The translations under genes were made by a program, and so were the position numbers. A stretch of DNA of 64,000 bases, from contig CAWEEQ010000004.1 of the NCBI GenBank assembly GCA_963808235.1, positions 1,632,001 to 1,696,000 of the forward strand, written 5' to 3'. Source of the stretch: an uncultured delta proteobacterium. Its GTDB lineage: Bacteria; Desulfobacterota; Binatia; Binatales; Binataceae. Positions 16,729 through 61,523 of the stretch are shown piece after piece. The notes beneath the pieces were generated by a model. It saw nothing but the letters and a program-made list of their open reading frames with translations. It ran no database searches and had not been told where the DNA came from. Positions within the stretch are counted from its first letter, which is position 1, and the number at the start of each line of letters is the position of its first letter.

Positions 16729-17706
16729 ATGGGCTCCAGAATTGTTTCTACCGGACGGGCTCTGCCGCGTGCCGCGCTCACCAATAAAGATCTCGAGCGC
16801 TACATGGATACCTCCGACGAATGGATTCGGTCGCGCACCGGAATCGGCCAGCGCTACACGCTCCGTCAGGGCGAGTCGCTCGCGGAAATCGCCGTCGACG
16901 CAAGCCGCACGGCGCTCGCACGGGCCGGAATCAAGCCGGGAGATCTCGACGCGATCATCGTCGGCACGGTTTCCTCCGAATACGCGTTCCCGTCCTTCGC
17001 GTGTCAGATTCAGAACGGCCTCGGCATCTCCACGATTCCCGCCTTCGACGTCGCCGCCGCCTGCTCCGGCTTCGTGTACGCGCTTTCGGTCGCGGACGCA
17101 CACATGCGCGCCGGCGACTTCAAGCGCGTGCTGGTCGTCGGCACCGACGCTCTGTCGACGATGGTCGATTGGGGCGATCGCAGTACCTCGGTGCTGTTCG
17201 GCGACGGCGCGGGCGCAGCCGTGATGGTGACCGAAGCGGGAAATCGCGGCGTGTTGTCGAGCCTGCTGCGATCGTCAGGCGAGTACTGGAACCTGCTCTC
17301 GGTGCGCGCGACCGGAGTCCGTGGCACGGTTGATTCGGAAATCCGGCGATCCTCCGATGACGCGATCAAGATGAAAGGGCCCGAGCTTTTCAAAATCGCC
17401 GTCAAGAGCATGGAAGAAGTCAGCCGCCTGGTCGCGCAGCGCGCCGGCGTGCCACTCGAGGAAATCGATCTGTTTGTGCCGCATCAGGCCAACATGCGGA
17501 TTATTTCCGCGGTCGCCGAACGGCTCGGCCTGCCGCAAGAAAGGGTCTTCACCAATATCGATCGCTATGGCAATACCTCCGCCGCTTCGGTACCGATCGC
17601 ACTAGACGAAGCGATCGAGCAGGGCCGCATCCGTGAAGGCAACATCGTGATGCTCAACGCATGCGGCGGCGGCCTCACCTGGGGCGCAAACCTGATCCGC
17701 TGGTAG
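16729..17706 (+). CDS. fabH: Beta-ketoacyl-ACP synthase III
   Basis: DTSDEWI, AACSGF, FGDGAGA, PHQAN, YGNTSAAS. Confidence 0.95.
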   Translation: MGSRIVSTGRALPRAALTNKDLERYMDTSDEWIRSRTGIGQRYTLRQGESLAEIAVDASRTALARAGIKPGDLDAIIVGTVSSEYAFPSFACQIQNGLGISTIPAFDVAAACSGFVYALSVADAHMRAGDFKRVLVVGTDALSTMVDWGDRSTSVLFGDGAGAAVMVTEAGNRGVLSSLLRSSGEYWNLLSVRATGVRGTVDSEIRRSSDDAIKMKGPELFKIAVKSMEEVSRLVAQRAGVPLEEIDLFVPHQANMRIISAVAERLGLPQERVFTNIDRYGNTSAASVPIALDEAIEQGRIREGNIVMLNACGGGLTWGANLIRW

Positions 17707-17715
17707 CGCTTCTTA

Positions 17716-17773
17716 CCTCGCCCGTTATTTTACGGGAGAGGATGCCGGCCGCCTTGCGGCCGGTAGGTGAGGG
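17716..17773 (-). repeat. REP-like double-hairpin element (CCCTCACC...CCTCTCCC...GGGCGAGG family)
   Basis: CCTCGCCCGT-tattt-tACGGGAGAGG, GCCGC-ctt-GCGGC, GGTGAGGG; reverse-oriented relative of the copies at 52277, 53022, 53116 and 54867. Confidence 0.75.
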
Positions 17774-17813
17774 TTCTGCGCCATGCCACTGCCACTCGAC
17801 CGCTCAACCTAAA

Positions 17814-18773
17814 ATGTTAAAAGAAATCCTCGACCGACGCGTCCTGATCGTGCTCGGCAAGGGCGGAGTCGGTAAAACCACTGTCAGCGCGGCGATCGCG
17901 AAGCTCGCGATTGCGTCCGGCGCCCGTGCGCTCGTCATGGAATGCGACTCGCGCGCGCCGTTGGCAAGAGTATTCGGAATCGATCCCGCGTTCCAACCGA
18001 AAGAGGTCATGCCTCATCTCTCTCTGATGGCCCTCGATGGACGCCGCGCGCTCGAGGAATATCTTCGCCTCGTGGTGCCAAGCCGGATGCTGCTCAAGGC
18101 CGTGTTTGCCAGTCGTCTCTACCAATTGTTCGTTCAGGCCGCGCCCGGCCTGCGCGAACTGATGATGCTCGGCAAGGTTTATTACGAAGCCGGGCGCAAA
18201 GCCGTCGAGCCTCCGCTCCGCAGGCTGATTATTGTAGATGCGCCGGCCAGCGGGCAGGCGATAAGCTTGCTCAAGATGCCGACCGCGGCGCGCACGACGT
18301 TTGCCGACAGCGTGGTCGGCAAAGAAGCGGGCAATATATCGCGGATGCTTCGCGATCGGCGCCATTGCGCAATTTTGCAAGTCACGACCGCCGACGCGCT
18401 GTCCGTCGCCGAAACTATCGAGACTCACGCCGAGCTGGAGAAGATCCATCTCGCACCGCTAGCGGTGATATTCAATCGAACGGTGGCGTCACGCTTCGAT
18501 GGCCACGATGTCGCCGCGCTCGCCAATCGTCGCGGACCTCGCTCCCACAAGAAAAATCTCGAGCACCTCGCGGAACTTGCAGGGTCCGAACTCCGCCGCG
18601 TCTCAGAAGCGCGTAACGCTATCGTGGCAATCCGCGCCGCGACCGGAGGTCCAGTGATCGAGCTCGTCGAGCATCCAAGTATCGCGGGCATCGAGTTGAT
18701 CGATCGCCTCGCCGAAGACCTCGCCCGAGATGGCGAAATACCGGCTCCGGAAATTCACACAACGGGCAAGTAG
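17814..18773 (+). CDS. ArsA/Get3-related P-loop ATPase (BagA/Rv3679-like subunit)
   Basis: GKGGVGKTT deviant Walker A, APGLRELMMLGKV, IIVDAPASG. Confidence 0.85.
   Translation: MLKEILDRRVLIVLGKGGVGKTTVSAAIAKLAIASGARALVMECDSRAPLARVFGIDPAFQPKEVMPHLSLMALDGRRALEEYLRLVVPSRMLLKAVFASRLYQLFVQAAPGLRELMMLGKVYYEAGRKAVEPPLRRLIIVDAPASGQAISLLKMPTAARTTFADSVVGKEAGNISRMLRDRRHCAILQVTTADALSVAETIETHAELEKIHLAPLAVIFNRTVASRFDGHDVAALANRRGPRSHKKNLEHLAELAGSELRRVSEARNAIVAIRAATGGPVIELVEHPSIAGIELIDRLAEDLARDGEIPAPEIHTTGK
18690..18731 (+). repeat. Left copy of 42-bp imperfect direct repeat (within the 3' end of the ArsA-like gene)
   Basis: ATCGAGTTGATCGATCGCCTCGCCGAAGACCTCGCCCGAGAT; 38/42 identical to 22073-22114. Confidence 0.85.
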
Positions 18774-18787
18774 TTAGGCATATTTCC

Positions 18788-18816
18788 TTGACGCTTTCCG
18801 GATGATTTGGTACTGA
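18788..18816 (+). promoter_or_regulatory. Putative sigma70-type promoter
   Basis: TTGACG-N17-TACTGA with TG at the extended -10 position; -10 imperfect. Confidence 0.4.
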
Positions 18817-18822
18817 TCAATC

Positions 18823-19072
18823 GCGTTGACGATGCCTGTGAGGGAAAACGCGGGTCAAAACCGCGTCGACGTCCGGCATCGCGGCGTCTGAATGCCGACC
18901 GCGCTTGCGAGGGAAGATGGCCGTCTAAACCACGGTCACTGACGTCCAAGACGGCGGCATTCGATATCTGGCCCTTGCGTCCTTAGTGAAGGATTGCACG
19001 CCAGCCACACGGAGACTCTCCGTGTTCGAATCACTGAACTTAGTGGAGCGAGCACGGAGAGTTTTTAATTTT
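18823..19072 (+). ncRNA. Candidate cis-regulatory leader RNA: two tandem conserved-core stem-loops plus a terminator/antiterminator
   Basis: Units 18823-18887 and 18890-18962 share GYGAGGGAA...GACGTCC with different but still paired stems; third hairpin 18968-19004; competing hairpins 19007-19025 and 19014-19063. Confidence 0.6.
19014..19072 (+). terminator. Intrinsic terminator-like hairpin upstream of the HEAT gene RBS
   Basis: GACTCTCCGTGTTCG / CGAGCACGGAGAGTT 15-bp stem (2 GU) followed by TTTTTAATTTT. Confidence 0.7.
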
Positions 19073-19084
19073 GGAGGGAAATTC

Positions 19085-19606
19085 ATGAAACCGGGAACTG
19101 AGGATCTCATGCAAACCGTAGAGAAGCTGGCCGACAGGGCCATGCTTCAAGAGGCACTGAAGACGATGCACGAGGCTGGTCAAGCCGCGGTCGGTCCCGC
19201 GCGAGAGGGATTGTCGCATCCGCATCCACGGGTGCGGCAATTTTGCGCGATGTTCCTTGACGAGCACTGGGATGAATCCGCACTGCAGCGGCTGATCCTC
19301 GCTTTGCACGACCCGAAACTGAAGGTACGCAAGGCCGCCGTACATTCGCTGGGATGCGATCGCTGCAAGAGCGGCGAAAATCCGATCGACGTGCTGCCAT
19401 ACGTCGAGGAACGGATTCGCGAGGACAAGAGCATCAAGGTGCGCCGCACCGCCGTGCTCACCCTGGCGACGCAGATGCCGAGTAAGCGGATCGCGCGGGT
19501 ATTGCGTCGGGTGCTCCGTGACGAAACCGATGAGAAGATTCGAAACTACGCCCAATACGGCCTGCGGCGGTACGAAGATTCGCTTAAGGCGCCGGCTTCC
19601 GCGTGA
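19085..19606 (+). CDS. HEAT-repeat protein with CxxCK motif
   Basis: GGAGG RBS; LSHPHPRVR, LHDPKLKVRKAAVHSLGCDRCK, DKSIKVRRTAV repeats. Confidence 0.85.
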   Translation: MKPGTEDLMQTVEKLADRAMLQEALKTMHEAGQAAVGPAREGLSHPHPRVRQFCAMFLDEHWDESALQRLILALHDPKLKVRKAAVHSLGCDRCKSGENPIDVLPYVEERIREDKSIKVRRTAVLTLATQMPSKRIARVLRRVLRDETDEKIRNYAQYGLRRYEDSLKAPASA

Positions 19607-20832
19607 GCATTGGGATCAAATCGCGATTGCCGCGAGGCAGTTTCCGGCTCGGCAATATCGGTGGCCGTCACGTGCTGATCGATCCCGCAGGCGCGCCATT
19701 TTTGTCGCTGGGCGTAGTGCACATTCGCGCGCTGAACAGAAATGCCGCGGCATTCGAACATCGCTATTCCGGCGACTGGGTCCGCGCGTGCCAGGATGTC
19801 GTCGCCAATCTCAAATCGTGGGGCTTTAATTCTGCCGGGTATCATCATCCAATGGAAATTCGCACGATGCTGCCGTTCATGGCAGAGACCTACCTAGGCG
19901 AGATCGCGTACTGGATGGCGGGTACTCGTTACCCCGACGTGTTTGGCCGGGGCTTTTCCTCCGCGGTAGCGCGCCAGGTACATCAGATGTGTTCGGGCGC
20001 GAAAGGGAATTTGAATCTGATTGGCTACTATTGGACTGATACTCCTCGATGGGACCTGGACAACGCTCGGCGGATGATCAACGACGATTGGGTTTCAGCG
20101 ATCCGCCGTGCCCCATTGGATTGGCCGGGCAAAAAACGCTATGTCGAGTTCCTGGTCCGGCGGCACGCCAACGATCCGGAGATGTTTCGCGCTTCCTATG
20201 GCTTCGATCTGAAGGACTGTAACGAACCCAATGCGTCCTACGATGCTATCGATCTTGAGAATCGCACTATACGCAGTGATGACGATGAATTCCTTCGCCT
20301 GATTGCGCGCGAATATTACCGCGTCGCCGGTGAAGCGATGGACCTTGAAGATCGCAAGCATCTGGTGTTCGGCGATCGTTATATGCTGAATGATTTGCCG
20401 GATTCGGTGCTCGAGGAATCACTACGGTGGACAGATGTAGTCTCGATCCAGCCGTACGGGTCCCAATTCGAGCAGGAGGACTTCGACCGCATCTACAAAA
20501 TCGCCAGACGGCCTATCATGATCTGCGATCACGCGGTGAACTTTCGGACCGAGAGGTATCCCACGACTGGCTGGCCGGCTTCTCCAAATGAAGAGCACGC
20601 GGCGCACGCGCACGCCCAATATATTGCTGATGCATTTAACCGCCCCTACATTGTGGGCTATCACCGATGCCATTACATGGATAACTACATCGCCAAGGAC
20701 GGCTTTGTAATGCAGGGACTCCTGCGCGAAGACTTGACCCCTCATACTGTCATGCTGGACACGACAAGACGCGCGAATCAGGAGGTTGCCTTAAACCTGA
20801 AGAATCGAAGTTTGAGCAGGAATAAAGGTTGA
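19603..20832 (+). CDS. Glycoside hydrolase-like TIM-barrel protein (GH50 agarase-like)
   Basis: LIDPAGAPFLSLGV, LKSWGFNSAG, YPDVF, NLIGYYW, IAREYY, HLVFGDRY, PYIVGYH; GTG start overlaps the upstream stop. Confidence 0.65.
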   Translation: MSIGIKSRLPRGSFRLGNIGGRHVLIDPAGAPFLSLGVVHIRALNRNAAAFEHRYSGDWVRACQDVVANLKSWGFNSAGYHHPMEIRTMLPFMAETYLGEIAYWMAGTRYPDVFGRGFSSAVARQVHQMCSGAKGNLNLIGYYWTDTPRWDLDNARRMINDDWVSAIRRAPLDWPGKKRYVEFLVRRHANDPEMFRASYGFDLKDCNEPNASYDAIDLENRTIRSDDDEFLRLIAREYYRVAGEAMDLEDRKHLVFGDRYMLNDLPDSVLEESLRWTDVVSIQPYGSQFEQEDFDRIYKIARRPIMICDHAVNFRTERYPTTGWPASPNEEHAAHAHAQYIADAFNRPYIVGYHRCHYMDNYIAKDGFVMQGLLREDLTPHTVMLDTTRRANQEVALNLKNRSLSRNKG

Positions 20833-22114: not shown

Positions 22115-22568
22115 CCGAAATCGAGATCCCCGAAATAACCAGTCTGGCACGGGGACCGATGCCTCCGAAAGTCGCCAGAGACTCGCAGCTATGCGGCTTC
22201 TGGGGATGAACTGTTCAGCCTGACGTCGGTGGATTTGGCGTGGTACACCTACCGCATGGACGGTTGCGACAATACCTCGTATTGGACGGACTCGCCCGAA
22301 ATCGGGCTAGCCGCGCTTACCGCAGAAATAATTTTTGACGGAACGAAGCTACGCCTAGAGCCAAGGCGTCCCAACGCCACAACATATGGTATGAATTGCT
22401 CCTTTCGGCTCTATCCGATCAGTGTGGAATCGCGTCGGCGGCGCGCCATGTTTGCGCGATATCGGGCGGGTTCAGGTCGTCAGGATGGCGAACCGAGGCC
22501 CGCACCAGCCCCTGCTGGAATCCCGAGGCTCCGGCAACTACGCTTGGCTCACAGGACTGACTAGTCAG

Positions 22569-24506
22569 ATGGAGAGCGGTAAGAAAGTTCGCGAGTCAAA
22601 GGTCCGTGAGCCGTGGATTATCCGCACCTACGCGGGCTTCGGCGACGCGCGCCAGGCAAACGAGCGATTTCTTTCGAACCTCAGCCAGGGTCAGCGCGGG
22701 CTCTCAATCGCTTTCGACTTGCCTACCCAGAACGGATACGACCCGGACGCGCCGGTCGCACGCGGCGAAGTTGGCGAGGCGGGCGTGTCGATTTGTCATT
22801 GGCAGGATATGGAGACGCTGTTCGCGGGAATCCCGCTTCAGTCCATCAACACCTCGATGACGATTAACGCGACCGCGCCGTTCCTCCTGGCGCTTTACCT
22901 GGTGGTCGCCGAAAAACACGGCGTGCCATGGACGGAGCTGCGCGGCACCACCCAGAACGACATGCTCAAGGAATTCGTCGCGCGCGGAACTTCGATCTTC
23001 GATCCGGAATTGTCGCTGCGCCTGTCCACCGACCTGATCAAATTCGCCGTCGAGCGCGTTCCGAACTGGAATCCGATCAATTGCTGCGGCTATCACTACA
23101 TGGAGAGCGGCGCCGGTCCGGTCGAGGAAATCGGCTTCGCGTTCGGCAACGCACTGCTCATCCTCGACGCGATCCGGGCCCGGCTCGACCGCGCCGCGTT
23201 CGAGCAAACGGTTCGGCGCATCTCGTTTTTTATCAACAGCGGAATCGAACTGGTTCCCGAAATCTGCAAAATTCGCGCGTACTTCAAACTCTGGCGCGAG
23301 CTGTGCGCGACTGAATACGGAATCGAAAATGTAGCCTTTCGCGCCGGATGCCAGGTGCGCTCCCTCACCCTTACCGAGCCGCAACCCGAAGTGAATATAA
23401 TCCGGATTGCTTACGAGGCACTGCCGGTCGTCCTCTCGGCGGATGCGCGGGTGAATGCACTTCAGCTTCCCGGCTTTCGAGAGGCGCTCGCGCTGCCCGA
23501 CCAATCCGAGCAGACGCTCAGCCTGCGCACGCAGCAGGTGCTCATGCATGAGACCGAGATCGCACGCTACGGCGATATCTTCGAAGGCAGCAAGGTTATC
23601 GAGAAGCTTACCGATGAGACCGCCGCGCGCGCGCGTGAAATTGCGATTCGATTGCGCGAGGCCGGCTACTCGCGCGCCATTTCGATCGTCGGCGCCGAAC
23701 TGACGCGTGAGCTCGCCGAGCGTCATCGCAAGGTTGAATCCGGAGAGATCGTGCAAGTAGGCGTCAACGCGTTTACCGGCGAGATCGGACTCACGCCCGT
23801 GCCCACGCGCGGCGTCGATCGCACGACGCAGGCGGCCAGGGAAGATGAGCGGATCGCCGCAATCCGGAAGTGGCGCATCGCGCGCGACCAGGCCGCGGTT
23901 TCGAGCGCGTGCGAAGTGTTAAGAAGAGCCGCTATCGAAAATACCGACGGCGGACTGATGAATGCCACCATCGAATTGGCTCGCGCCGGCGGTACGGTCG
24001 GAGAATGGACGCAGTCGCTCGAGCGTGCTGGCCGTGGACGCTTTACCCCTTCAATTTTCGAATCCAGCTTGAACGTCGGCGCGCTCAAGGTGCCCACGGC
24101 GCCACAAAAGATTCGCATCGCGCTCGGCAAGGCCGGCCTCGACGGACATATCAACGCGGTGAAACTGCTGGCGCACGCGTGCATGCAGGCCGGGATGGAA
24201 GTGGTGCTTGCCGGATTCAAGCAAACGCCGGATCAGATGGTCGAGACCGCGCTCGAGGAGGATGTCGACGTGCTCGCGATATCGACCCTGGCCGGCGCGC
24301 ACATGATGATCGCGCGCACGACGCTCGACCTGCTCAAACGTCACGGCGCGGAAGACGTGAGACTCGTGATGGGCGGAATAATTCCGGAACCCGACCGCAA
24401 AGCCCTGCTCGATCTCGGCGTCAAAGCAGTCTTCACGCCGAAGGACTCGAACCTGGGCGAGATTGTCAAACGAATTATCGAAGTGGGAACGCGTAATCGA
24501 AAATGA
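22569..24506 (+). CDS. B12-dependent acyl-CoA mutase, ethylmalonyl-CoA mutase (Ecm/MeaA)-like
   Basis: PWIIRTYAGF, GLSIAFDLPTQNGYDPD, GTTQND, LQLP; C-terminal B12-binding GLDGH. Confidence 0.85.
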   Translation: MESGKKVRESKVREPWIIRTYAGFGDARQANERFLSNLSQGQRGLSIAFDLPTQNGYDPDAPVARGEVGEAGVSICHWQDMETLFAGIPLQSINTSMTINATAPFLLALYLVVAEKHGVPWTELRGTTQNDMLKEFVARGTSIFDPELSLRLSTDLIKFAVERVPNWNPINCCGYHYMESGAGPVEEIGFAFGNALLILDAIRARLDRAAFEQTVRRISFFINSGIELVPEICKIRAYFKLWRELCATEYGIENVAFRAGCQVRSLTLTEPQPEVNIIRIAYEALPVVLSADARVNALQLPGFREALALPDQSEQTLSLRTQQVLMHETEIARYGDIFEGSKVIEKLTDETAARAREIAIRLREAGYSRAISIVGAELTRELAERHRKVESGEIVQVGVNAFTGEIGLTPVPTRGVDRTTQAAREDERIAAIRKWRIARDQAAVSSACEVLRRAAIENTDGGLMNATIELARAGGTVGEWTQSLERAGRGRFTPSIFESSLNVGALKVPTAPQKIRIALGKAGLDGHINAVKLLAHACMQAGMEVVLAGFKQTPDQMVETALEEDVDVLAISTLAGAHMMIARTTLDLLKRHGAEDVRLVMGGIIPEPDRKALLDLGVKAVFTPKDSNLGEIVKRIIEVGTRNRK

Positions 24507-28952: not shown

Positions 28953-29028
28953 TGGAGGCGGCGATCGGATTCGAACCGATGCATGGAGGTTTTGCAGACC
29001 TCTCCCTTAACCACTTGGGTACGCCGCC
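28953..29028 (-). tRNA. tRNA-Cys(GCA)
   Basis: GGCGGCGTACCCAAGTGGTTAAGGGAGAGGTCTGCAAAACCTC...GTTCGAATCCGATCGCCGCCTCCA; cloverleaf with encoded CCA. Confidence 0.97.
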
Positions 29029-40260: not shown

Positions 40261-40336
40261 TGGAGCGGGTGATCGGTTTCGAACCGACGACCTCGTGCTT
40301 GGCAAGCACGCGCTCTACCAACTGAGCTACACCCGC
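40261..40336 (-). tRNA. tRNA-Gly(GCC)
   Basis: GCGGGTGTAGCTCAGTTGGTAGAGCGCGTGCTTGCCAAGCACG...TTCGAAACCGATCACCCGCTCCA. Confidence 0.97.
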
Positions 40337-53201: not shown

Positions 53202-53297
53202 TAAGAAAGCGCGCCGGCGCAAATCGATCATCAAATATGTGCTCGCCTATGGAAGAAGCACTCTAGACGCTTGCGACCTGCACGTTCACTTAAAAGA

Positions 53298-53638
53298 CCG
53301 GAGTGAGTCTGTAAGCCGGGTTCTGTGCTCTTGCGAGTGGCGATCATTCCTCTAGGCCGTCGATTGCTCGATGGCTCATGCGACCATACCCGAGGCCTTA
53401 AGAGCGGGCCGCTCAGCCTCCTATTTGGTCTTGCTCCGGGTGGGGTTTGGCATGCGCGCGCGATCACTCGCGCGCCGGTGGGCTCTTACCCCACCATTTC
53501 ACCCTTACCCTTTCGGGCGGTCTATTTTCTGTGCCACTTTCCGCGGATCGCTCCGCGCCGCCGTTAACGGCCACCCTGCCCTATGGAGCCCGGACTTTCC
53601 TCCTCCCTTATGGGAGGCGATCGCCCGACTCACTCCGG
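53298..53638 (-). ncRNA. rnpB: RNase P RNA (type A, compact)
   Basis: GAGGAAAGTCCGGGCTCC, ACAGAAAATAGACCGCC, GGTAAGAGCCCACC, AAACCCCACCCGGAGCAAG, ACAGAACCCGGCTTA; terminal P1 CCGGAGTGAGTC/GACTCACTCCGG. Confidence 0.97.
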
Positions 53639-55783: not shown

Positions 55784-55859
55784 TGGGCCCACCAGGATTT
55801 GAACCTGGGACCAGCCGGTTATGAGCCGGCAGCTCTGAACCTGGCTGAGCTATGGGCCC
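55784..55859 (-). tRNA. tRNA with CAT anticodon, probably tRNA-Ile2; CCA not encoded
   Basis: GGGCCCATAGCTCAGCCAGGTTCAGAGCTGCCGGCTCATAACCGGCTGGTCCCAGGTTCAAATCCTGGTGGGCCCA; paired 1-72 and no 3 G-C anticodon-stem run, so not an initiator. Confidence 0.9.
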
Positions 55860-61447: not shown

Positions 61448-61523
61448 GGGCAGGTAGCTCAGTCGGTAGAGCAAAGGACTGAAAATCCTTGTGTCGAGTG
61501 TTCGATTCACTCCCTGCCCACCA
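61448..61523 (+). tRNA. tRNA-Phe(GAA)
   Basis: GGGCAGGTAGCTCAGTCGGTAGAGCAAAGGACTGAAAATCCTT...TTCGATTCACTCCCTGCCCACCA. Confidence 0.97.

Follow-up and report, generated by a model that had tools for sequence, protein, structure and literature searches.

A composite leader of tandem structured units and a common attenuator core upstream of a HEAT-repeat gene in Binataceae

Glycine riboswitches place two homologous sensor-like domains before one terminator, with single-domain variants elsewhere, and the NAD+-I (nadA) and guanidine-II (mini-ykkC) riboswitches carry small rod-like or hairpin domains in tandem, a pair of ACGR tetraloops being a feature of this group. In the S10 leader, bound by L4, and in the pyr leaders, bound by PyrR, a protein encoded downstream binds hairpins of its own leader and alters the outcome at the terminator. 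BglG/LicT systems have a small antiterminator hairpin (RAT) that overlaps the 5' arm of the terminator, in operons that start with the regulator gene and continue with glycosidase genes, and the ANTAR, or dual-hexaloop, targets have two small hexaloop hairpins, the second of which overlaps a terminator. We analyzed a stretch of 64,000 nucleotides (nt) from an uncultured delta proteobacterium of the Binataceae (contig CAWEEQ010000004.1, positions 1,632,001 to 1,696,000), hereafter the window, in which a leader of about 250 nt precedes a gene for a small HEAT-repeat protein found in soil bacteria. This leader consists of two tandem hairpins of 61-65 nt, which we call units, then a third hairpin, an antiterminator and a terminator. 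It is a real, conserved and undescribed regulatory RNA, and a functional cis-regulatory attenuator very probably exists here. All the elements listed in a preliminary description, made from the letters of the DNA, are present where that description had placed them.

The features are given below. R1 and R2 are covariance models built from 4 and 34 units, respectively, and R3 is a model built on 26 sequences of the attenuator core; A7 is an alignment of 34 unit copies (31 distinct) and A13 an alignment of 36 core copies. Relatives were found by BLASTN first, and those with units are records titled Candidatus Binataceae.

18788..18816, + strand: promoter candidate, with -35 TTGACG at 18788-18793, a 17-nt spacer and -10 TACTGA at 18811-18816 (from the sequence)
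18822-19074, + strand: leader, a composite 5' regulatory RNA that ends 10 nt short of the HEAT ATG
18825..18885, + strand: unit 1 (R1 45.5 bits, R2 58.3 bits; covariation in A7)
18894..18958, + strand: unit 2 (R1 84.6 bits, R2 71.2 bits; minimum free energy (MFE) fold; covariation)
18958..19074, + strand: core attenuator module, common to the leaders of PhyH-like genes (R3 92.0 bits; whole extent of the match)
18964..19004, + strand: conserved AUAU tail (18964-18967) and hairpin H1 (18968-19004), the third hairpin of the preliminary description (alignments A12 and A13)
19007..19025, + strand: antiterminator hairpin, ACACGGAG-ACU-CUCCGUGU (sequence, A13, folds without the terminator 3' arm)
19016..19072, + strand: intrinsic-terminator-like hairpin and U tract (folds, A13)
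19073-19077, + strand: GGAGG ribosome-binding site (sequence; a GGAGG-like motif precedes the ATG in the aligned leaders)
19085..19606, + strand: gene for a HEAT-repeat protein of 173 amino acids (aa), the constant partner of the units (PF13646, E 8e-16)
19603..20832, + strand: GH50-like (agarase-like) gene, 409 aa, GTG start, an optional partner

The preliminary description could not match this leader to any known riboswitch class, and our searches bear this out. None of the 4227 models of Rfam 15, which include glycine, cobalamin, NAD+-I, guanidine I-III, T-box, SAM, PyrR and r-protein leaders, matched within 18788-19085 at gathering thresholds. When 18700-19150 was searched at E<=10, the best match was mir-504, with 20.4 bits against a threshold of 57; the sub-threshold matches of the leader are microRNA-like chance matches on the long hairpin. 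At seven homologous HEAT loci, cobalamin riboswitches over 2 kb distant were the sole matches, and at six loci of the PhyH type described below no family reached its threshold. In the literature we found no description of this element and nothing on riboswitches in Binatota; the main text of Weinberg et al. 2017 (PMC5737381) does not contain 'HEAT', its motif-listing supplements lying outside this search.

Beyond the lack of an Rfam match, the locus differs from each of these systems in structure. Each unit is a simple hairpin with internal loops and lacks the three-way junction of glycine riboswitches, and the platform is here a module with an independent existence. The conserved nucleotides are other than those of NAD+-I and guanidine-II, and the ACG of the antiterminator forms the 3-nt loop of a single hairpin instead of two ACGR tetraloops. 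As in the L4 and PyrR systems, the putative operator occurs only with its own operon and, in the model proposed below, the encoded protein would bind its own leader; however, HEAT has no known RNA partner and no rRNA mimicry was found. The likeness to BglG/LicT lies in the overlap of antiterminator and terminator, in a first gene that encodes a candidate RNA binder and in a glycoside-hydrolase-like gene behind it, the last at part of the loci only. Unlike BglG/LicT, the protein has no CAT or PRD domains, being all HEAT repeats, and stands alone in several genomes, and no second terminator site was seen.

Covariation supports the view that the units are homologous, structured and conserved domains. 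Unit 1 comprises an outer helix with a bulged A, a variable helix, a GUGAG bulge, a GGA/UCC helix, an AA / CGACG internal loop and a variable hairpin. Unit 2 has the same architecture, with a GCGAG bulge and an AGA / CUGACG loop, and is extended to 18890-18962 by four extra pairs (GAAU/AUUC). The plan that emerges from A7 starts with an outer helix, GYYG / CGGC, an invariant bulged A and a C-G pair; this helix (GYYG-A-C / G-CGGC) is common to both window units and had been overlooked before. There follow a variable helix of six pairs, a bulge (N)GYGAG, an invariant 3-base-pair (bp) GGA/UCC helix, an internal loop AR(N) / YGACG and a distal hairpin free in sequence and length, with an insert of up to 68 nt. 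The bulged A is invariant in 31/31 rows. Two invariant patches thus stand on the unit helix, the outer helix and the internal-loop core, up to seven pairs apart, and about 25 positions are near-invariant beside free helices across a HEAT divergence that reaches down to 58% identity.

In A7, 92.8% of cells are paired, against 81.3% in shuffles, and controls in which the partner was slid by 1-3 columns give 29-56%. Double changes occur at 15 of 21 pairs, and the observed values were reached by none of 500 shuffles; because the aligned units are kin within a narrow family, these covariation counts exceed the number of independent events. Even so, loops that stay invariant stand out clearly against helices whose pairs change freely. 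The earlier claim of two homologous units that retain a core while their inner stems differ and still pair is thereby upheld. As expected of a riboswitch-type element, the units are structured, conserved and covarying domains in a 5' leader, and they are probably effector-binding domains. By eye, the registers of the unit loops do not fit a K-turn.

The units are also rare. R1 scores these two and nothing else in the window or in the 4.59-Mb genome, and the GAGGGAA..GACGTCC core occurs twice in the window against 0.06 expected. With two copies genome-wide, both at this locus, the element does not behave as a dispersed repeat of the REP or MITE type, which the preliminary description had named among the findings that would undo its reading. 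In two other genomes the copies again number one or two and lie at the HEAT locus only.

Orthologues of the HEAT gene (at least 59% identity) were found in 12 of 165 family genomes, and one or two units stand directly upstream of the orthologue in all 12; these include an unpublished genome, G181, and the conclusion holds without it. Fourteen of 18 further HEAT loci have units. The remaining four comprise two in which a unit is cut by a contig end, one with 128 nt of upstream sequence and one 37%-identical fragment. At four loci of HEAT paralogues (32-40% identity), no unit match was better than E 0.1 and no comparable leader was detected. Units were present at 2 of 80 loci of the GH50-like family, exactly the two with a HEAT gene, the other 78 having neither. 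These counts (12/12 genomes, 0/4 paralogue loci, 2/80 GH50-like loci) are those expected of an autogenous protein-binding leader, whose RNA element would occur only with the gene of its binding protein. Throughout, as the preliminary description had anticipated for a 5' untranslated region, the element lies in the 5' leader and on the gene's strand. About half of the loci have a single unit.

Several other matches were considered and set aside. In 151 genomes of the class, R2 had just two weak matches away from HEAT loci, neither of which was accepted: that in G287 sits in coding-like, very G+C-rich sequence, and that in G229 (L232 1501-1551, - strand; 32 bits) is without the outer helix and the GYGAG bulge. 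The latter is an intergenic hairpin from another family of the class, in which AGGGAAGA ... CUGACGUCC flank a G+C-rich stem; it may be a chance match or a distant relative of the units. BLASTN with the leader (E<=0.01) matched 22 of 165 family genomes, the real matches being only those in G070, G185, G182 and G012; the 20-45-nt matches inspected fell in coding-like sequence. The loose GAGGGAA..GACGTCC pattern occurs in 37 of 61 genomes, nearly always in coding stretches without hairpin potential, and this count is meaningless as a measure of homology. A strict unit pattern run over contigs found at least 119 stretches, 80 loci being listed, and says nothing on absence elsewhere. Most of the loci listed are one 78-nt stretch (L112-L191) found in many Streptomyces and Kitasatospora genomes, presumably coding, which forms 0-2 of six helix pairs and matches the loose unit pattern by chance. 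Among 23 strict-pattern loci run with R1, only four scored, all known before. Spread across phyla would rest on two depositor labels (L092, L093) that we judged unreliable: L092 coincides, in contig number and coordinates, with a genome placed in the same genus as the genome of the window (G000), and L093 has the same gene order as L092. The distribution is narrow, being limited to Binataceae and close kin.

The leader as a whole folds far better than expected. On the + strand, 18815-19085 has an MFE of -125.9 kcal/mol against -91.2 +/- 5.2 in shuffles (z -6.7; 0 of 200 equal), and the - strand gives z -3.0. G-U pairs are frequent and all unit copies lie on the gene's strand, both of which fit the + strand as the RNA. 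The promoter proposed earlier, TTGACG-N17-TACTGA, stands in part. Its placement is conserved, with TTGAC-N16/17-TA at the same place in 17 aligned leaders: TTG of the -35 hexamer is invariant, its A and C are at least 90% conserved, the TA of the -10 hexamer is invariant, the spacing is constant and unit 1 starts 6-9 nt past the -10. However, TACTGA is a weak -10 hexamer and a consensus scan makes no promoter call at 18788..18816. An independent promoter between terminator and HEAT gene, which would have made the element a standalone small RNA, has no room in the 18-nt gap.

The 3' half of the leader contains the switch. Hairpin H1 has a conserved, irregular base and a variable top. In A13 its helix is 85.5% paired and its base includes a C/C mismatch; C11-G48 is paired in 33 of 34 rows with letters, and 12/47 is unpaired in 16 of 34. 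The antiterminator has 8 bp and a 3-nt loop, which reaches 7-8 nt in four sequences; neither this loop nor those of H1, which vary in length and sequence, answers to the hexaloops of ANTAR targets. The terminator pairs 19016-19028 with 19049-19061 around an inner hairpin (19031-19046), is followed by the U tract TTTTTAATTTT at 19062-19072 and belongs to a long stem spanning 19011/19016-19061/19066. Its outer helix is 97.2% paired in 36 rows, and RNAalifold finds double changes at 8 of its 15 pairs. The G+C-rich hairpin with U tract that an attenuator calls for is thus present in G000, where the U tract is good. In many relatives it is weak, with only UUU or UUUG past the extended stem, so that some of the cores may work differently.

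The 3' arm of the antiterminator doubles as the 5' arm of the terminator, so the two helices exclude each other, and both have been kept in evolution. In the 36 cores of A13, column 69 (U or C) changes together with column 61 (AU 20, GC 14, other 1) and with column 117 (UA 17, CG 14, UG 4), and column 73 does so with column 57 (AU 19, GC 9, GU 2, other 6) and with column 113 (UA 16, CG 12, UG 4, other 3); the same dual covariation of columns 69 and 73 is also seen in 19 sequences. A base that changes with both of its alternative partners is the best comparative evidence for a two-state switch, and these columns therefore support a true antiterminator/terminator switch, in line with the mutual exclusion proposed in the preliminary description. 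In folds, the antiterminator forms in most sequences when the leader is cut before the terminator 3' arm, and at full length the terminator (-23 to -37 kcal/mol on its own) wins in all but one (L097). We infer that an effector acting on the core sets read-through into the gene. A clamp helix between the linker just past unit 2 and a segment past the antiterminator was considered; it is no better than shuffles in most lineages and good only in a few, such as G000 and G070 (AUUCGA/UCGAAU). By eye, the antiterminator loop and 3' arm (GACG-CUCC) resemble the GACG-UCC of the units.

This core is not confined to HEAT genes. A BLASTN match in G012 to the 3' half of the leader only led to a second class of loci, and R3 finds the core in 26 of 151 family genomes, at one or two distinct loci per genome. 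At 16 of 17 non-HEAT cores examined, an open reading frame for a PhyH-like dioxygenase lies just downstream, its first in-frame start lying between 4 nt upstream and 63 nt downstream of the core end. The products share 35-74% identity with a protein of G012, itself a match to PF05721 (PhyH; 34.5 bits, cut-off 22). No units were found in these leaders; promoter-like sequences (TTGACA..TAAGAAT or TTGTAA..CATAAA) lie just upstream, and one subgroup has a small extra hairpin. The two classes can be neighbours, as shown by the layout of G118: core, PhyH-like gene, unit and core, HEAT, GH50-like gene. Two cores on the same strand about 1 kb apart are seen in L082 (9889-11059, - strand) and L100 (249-1404, + strand). 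A PhyH-like query had no match in G000, a genome that is 93% complete. The HEAT leader is thus a composite of a common attenuator core and HEAT-specific units, and the same core alone would control PhyH-like dioxygenase genes. Of the earlier notion of an expression platform, the covarying terminator and its competing hairpin stand; the platform, third hairpin included, proves to be an independent module.

The reverse arrangement, units without core, is seen in L105 (1-215). It has two units, of which the first carries a branched distal insert; 17 A/U-rich nt then lead to the ATG, and this leader has no H1, antiterminator, terminator, clear Shine-Dalgarno sequence or evident alternative pairing.

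The HEAT gene starts at ATG 19085, not 19086. Its orthologues are 58-92% identical, and an AlphaFold2 (AF2) model of the protein is an alpha-solenoid (predicted local distance difference test, pLDDT, 93). The protein is basic, with an isoelectric point (pI) of 9.3 (range 9.3-9.9), and 19 basic positions are at least 90% conserved. Three residues, H87, C91 and C94 (H-x3-C-x2-C), are invariant in 46 HEAT sequences; the paralogues (L245, L247, L248 and L249; 166-184 aa, 32-40% identity) also keep this motif, together with a conserved upstream Cys.

Our preferred explanation, advanced tentatively, makes the units operators to which the HEAT protein would bind. Transcription from the conserved sigma-70-type promoter would start a few bases before unit 1. 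In the core, an effector would set the choice between antiterminator and terminator, one helix forming at a time. The units would be operator sites for the basic HEAT protein itself, providing autogenous feedback, and this gene-specific feedback would be added onto the common attenuator, much as L4 acts on the S10 leader; occupancy of the units would be coupled indirectly to the choice made in the core. We lean to HEAT as effector because the units follow HEAT alone even though the PhyH-like gene shares the core, because the two invariant patches with their bulged A resemble a protein footprint, because HEAT is basic with its 19 conserved basic positions, and because the units of L105, 17 nt before the ATG and without a core, would suit steric repression.

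Other observations weigh against this reading. Binding to its own mRNA is not known to us for any HEAT-repeat protein of bacteria. A fold search with HEAT returned only designed repeat proteins and no functional clue. The paralogues that lack units are likewise basic (pI 8.4-9.6), and charge is therefore no guide to RNA binding. Single units at about half of the loci mean that a dimer on two sites would not be a general picture, and the kinship of the aligned units bears on the covariation as noted above. We found no conserved alternative pairing between units and antiterminator or terminator; ligand and protein models alike must therefore assume an indirect link. Tandem aptamer-like 5' domains before a terminator are, moreover, classic riboswitch traits. 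A fuller picture, in which two undescribed RNA families are stacked in a single leader in Binataceae, a compact attenuator or riboswitch core that senses a signal common to the PhyH-like dioxygenase and the Cys/His-bearing HEAT protein and regulates both, and a tandem hairpin operator bound by HEAT, is more doubtful than operator function of the units by itself.

Those riboswitch traits lead to the closest competitor of the HEAT-operator reading, a new class of small-molecule or ion riboswitch whose aptamers, in one copy or two (cooperative in tandem), feed the common terminator switch, possibly in its turn a second riboswitch of another kind. Conserved internal-loop nucleotides beside covarying helices, a distal stem whose length varies up to the 68-nt insert, tandem and single arrangements as in glycine riboswitches, and units at the 5' end of the transcript with terminator and antiterminator downstream all suit aptamers. 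The invariant H-x3-C-x2-C of HEAT could bind metal and so give a rationale for a dedicated sensor, and in G167 a chromate-transporter gene and mscL follow HEAT. Yet the sole gene family associated with the units is neither an enzyme nor a transporter, the PhyH-like genes stand under the same core without units, and L105 has units and no platform. The outer helix keeps its sequence instead of covarying, and the switching sequence that a riboswitch would be expected to share between aptamer and platform was not seen between the P1 helix of the units and the platform. We consider a new riboswitch class rather unlikely on this evidence.

The strict co-inheritance of RNA and protein fits partnership as well as regulation. 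The units might bind another trans-acting factor, a protein or RNA encoded elsewhere, or form the structured body of a stable short transcript of about 245 nt, ending at the terminator, that works with HEAT as a ribonucleoprotein instead of regulating it: termination would release the leader as a discrete RNA bearing both conserved hairpins, and the core can regulate by itself. Against this, the searched genomes contain no second copy of the unit and so offer no further targets, the element is invariably part of the leader and does not occur apart from the gene, and no candidate factor was identified; such a role is improbable. That the core works without units before PhyH-like genes, and that copy number varies between one and two, would also suit neutral duplications or remnants, with the core attenuator alone of importance; with about 25 near-invariant positions, compensatory changes and retention in all 12 orthologue-bearing genomes, this last explanation has very little chance of being right.

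The genes around HEAT bear in part on the HEAT and glycoside-hydrolase-like operon of the preliminary description, of which the HEAT gene proved constant and the hydrolase-like fold fair, while the hydrolase occurs at only part of the loci. The GTG start of the GH50-like gene (19603) overlaps the final four bases of the HEAT gene. Its 409-aa product has no Pfam or NCBIfam match; the AF2 model (pLDDT 94) has GH50 exo-beta-agarases as its best Foldseek matches (E 3e-22, template modelling score 0.8), and an Atlas lead reads 'agarase family'. This gene follows HEAT in G000, G070 and G118, three of ten genome loci examined, and in 8 of another 21 loci, several of which stop immediately past HEAT. 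The gene past HEAT is convergent in G185, G182, G179 and G181, and the chromate-transporter gene and mscL of G167 are on the same strand as HEAT. The GH50-like family (L253-L332) occurs widely among Verrucomicrobiota, Planctomycetota, Bacteroidota, Kiritimatiellota-type and some archaeal records, most members having either no annotation or an agarase label.

The neighbourhood is not conserved among HEAT loci. Upstream of the leader in the window lies a gene for an ArsA/Get3/BagA-like P-loop ATPase (17661-18773, + strand; PF02374, E 6e-20), with fatty-acid synthesis genes (KAS III, ketoacyl synthase) farther upstream. In L092 (46-186, + strand) and L093 (477-554, + strand), cobalamin riboswitches of 43.7 and 50.1 bits head a string of genes for TonB, an unknown protein of 207-213 aa and YqeY that ends just before the HEAT leader. 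A gene for a B12-dependent methylmalonyl-CoA mutase is found at 22422-24506 of the window. The five Rfam matches in the window are RNase P RNA class A (53296-53636, - strand, 305 bits) and four tRNA genes (28956-29028, 40264-40336 and 55784-55859, - strand; 61448-61520, + strand).

These results add two well-supported, uncatalogued structured RNA families to a phylum known almost solely from metagenomes. Sensor-like domains and expression platform are here separate, reusable modules, a rare natural case in that one platform occurs both alone and together with units. Binding of the units by the HEAT protein would give bacterial HEAT repeats a role in RNA binding; should the units be its operators, it would be the first protein of the alpha-solenoid (HEAT) type in bacteria shown to recognise structured RNA and to control its own transcription by feedback. 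Were a metabolite or ion bound instead, the units would form a new class of riboswitch, and the identity of that ligand would offer a clue to what an uncharacterised protein family does. In addition, the core links HEAT to a PhyH-like dioxygenase of the Fe(II)/2-oxoglutarate type and, at some loci, to a GH50-like hydrolase, which provides a first handle on the pathway.

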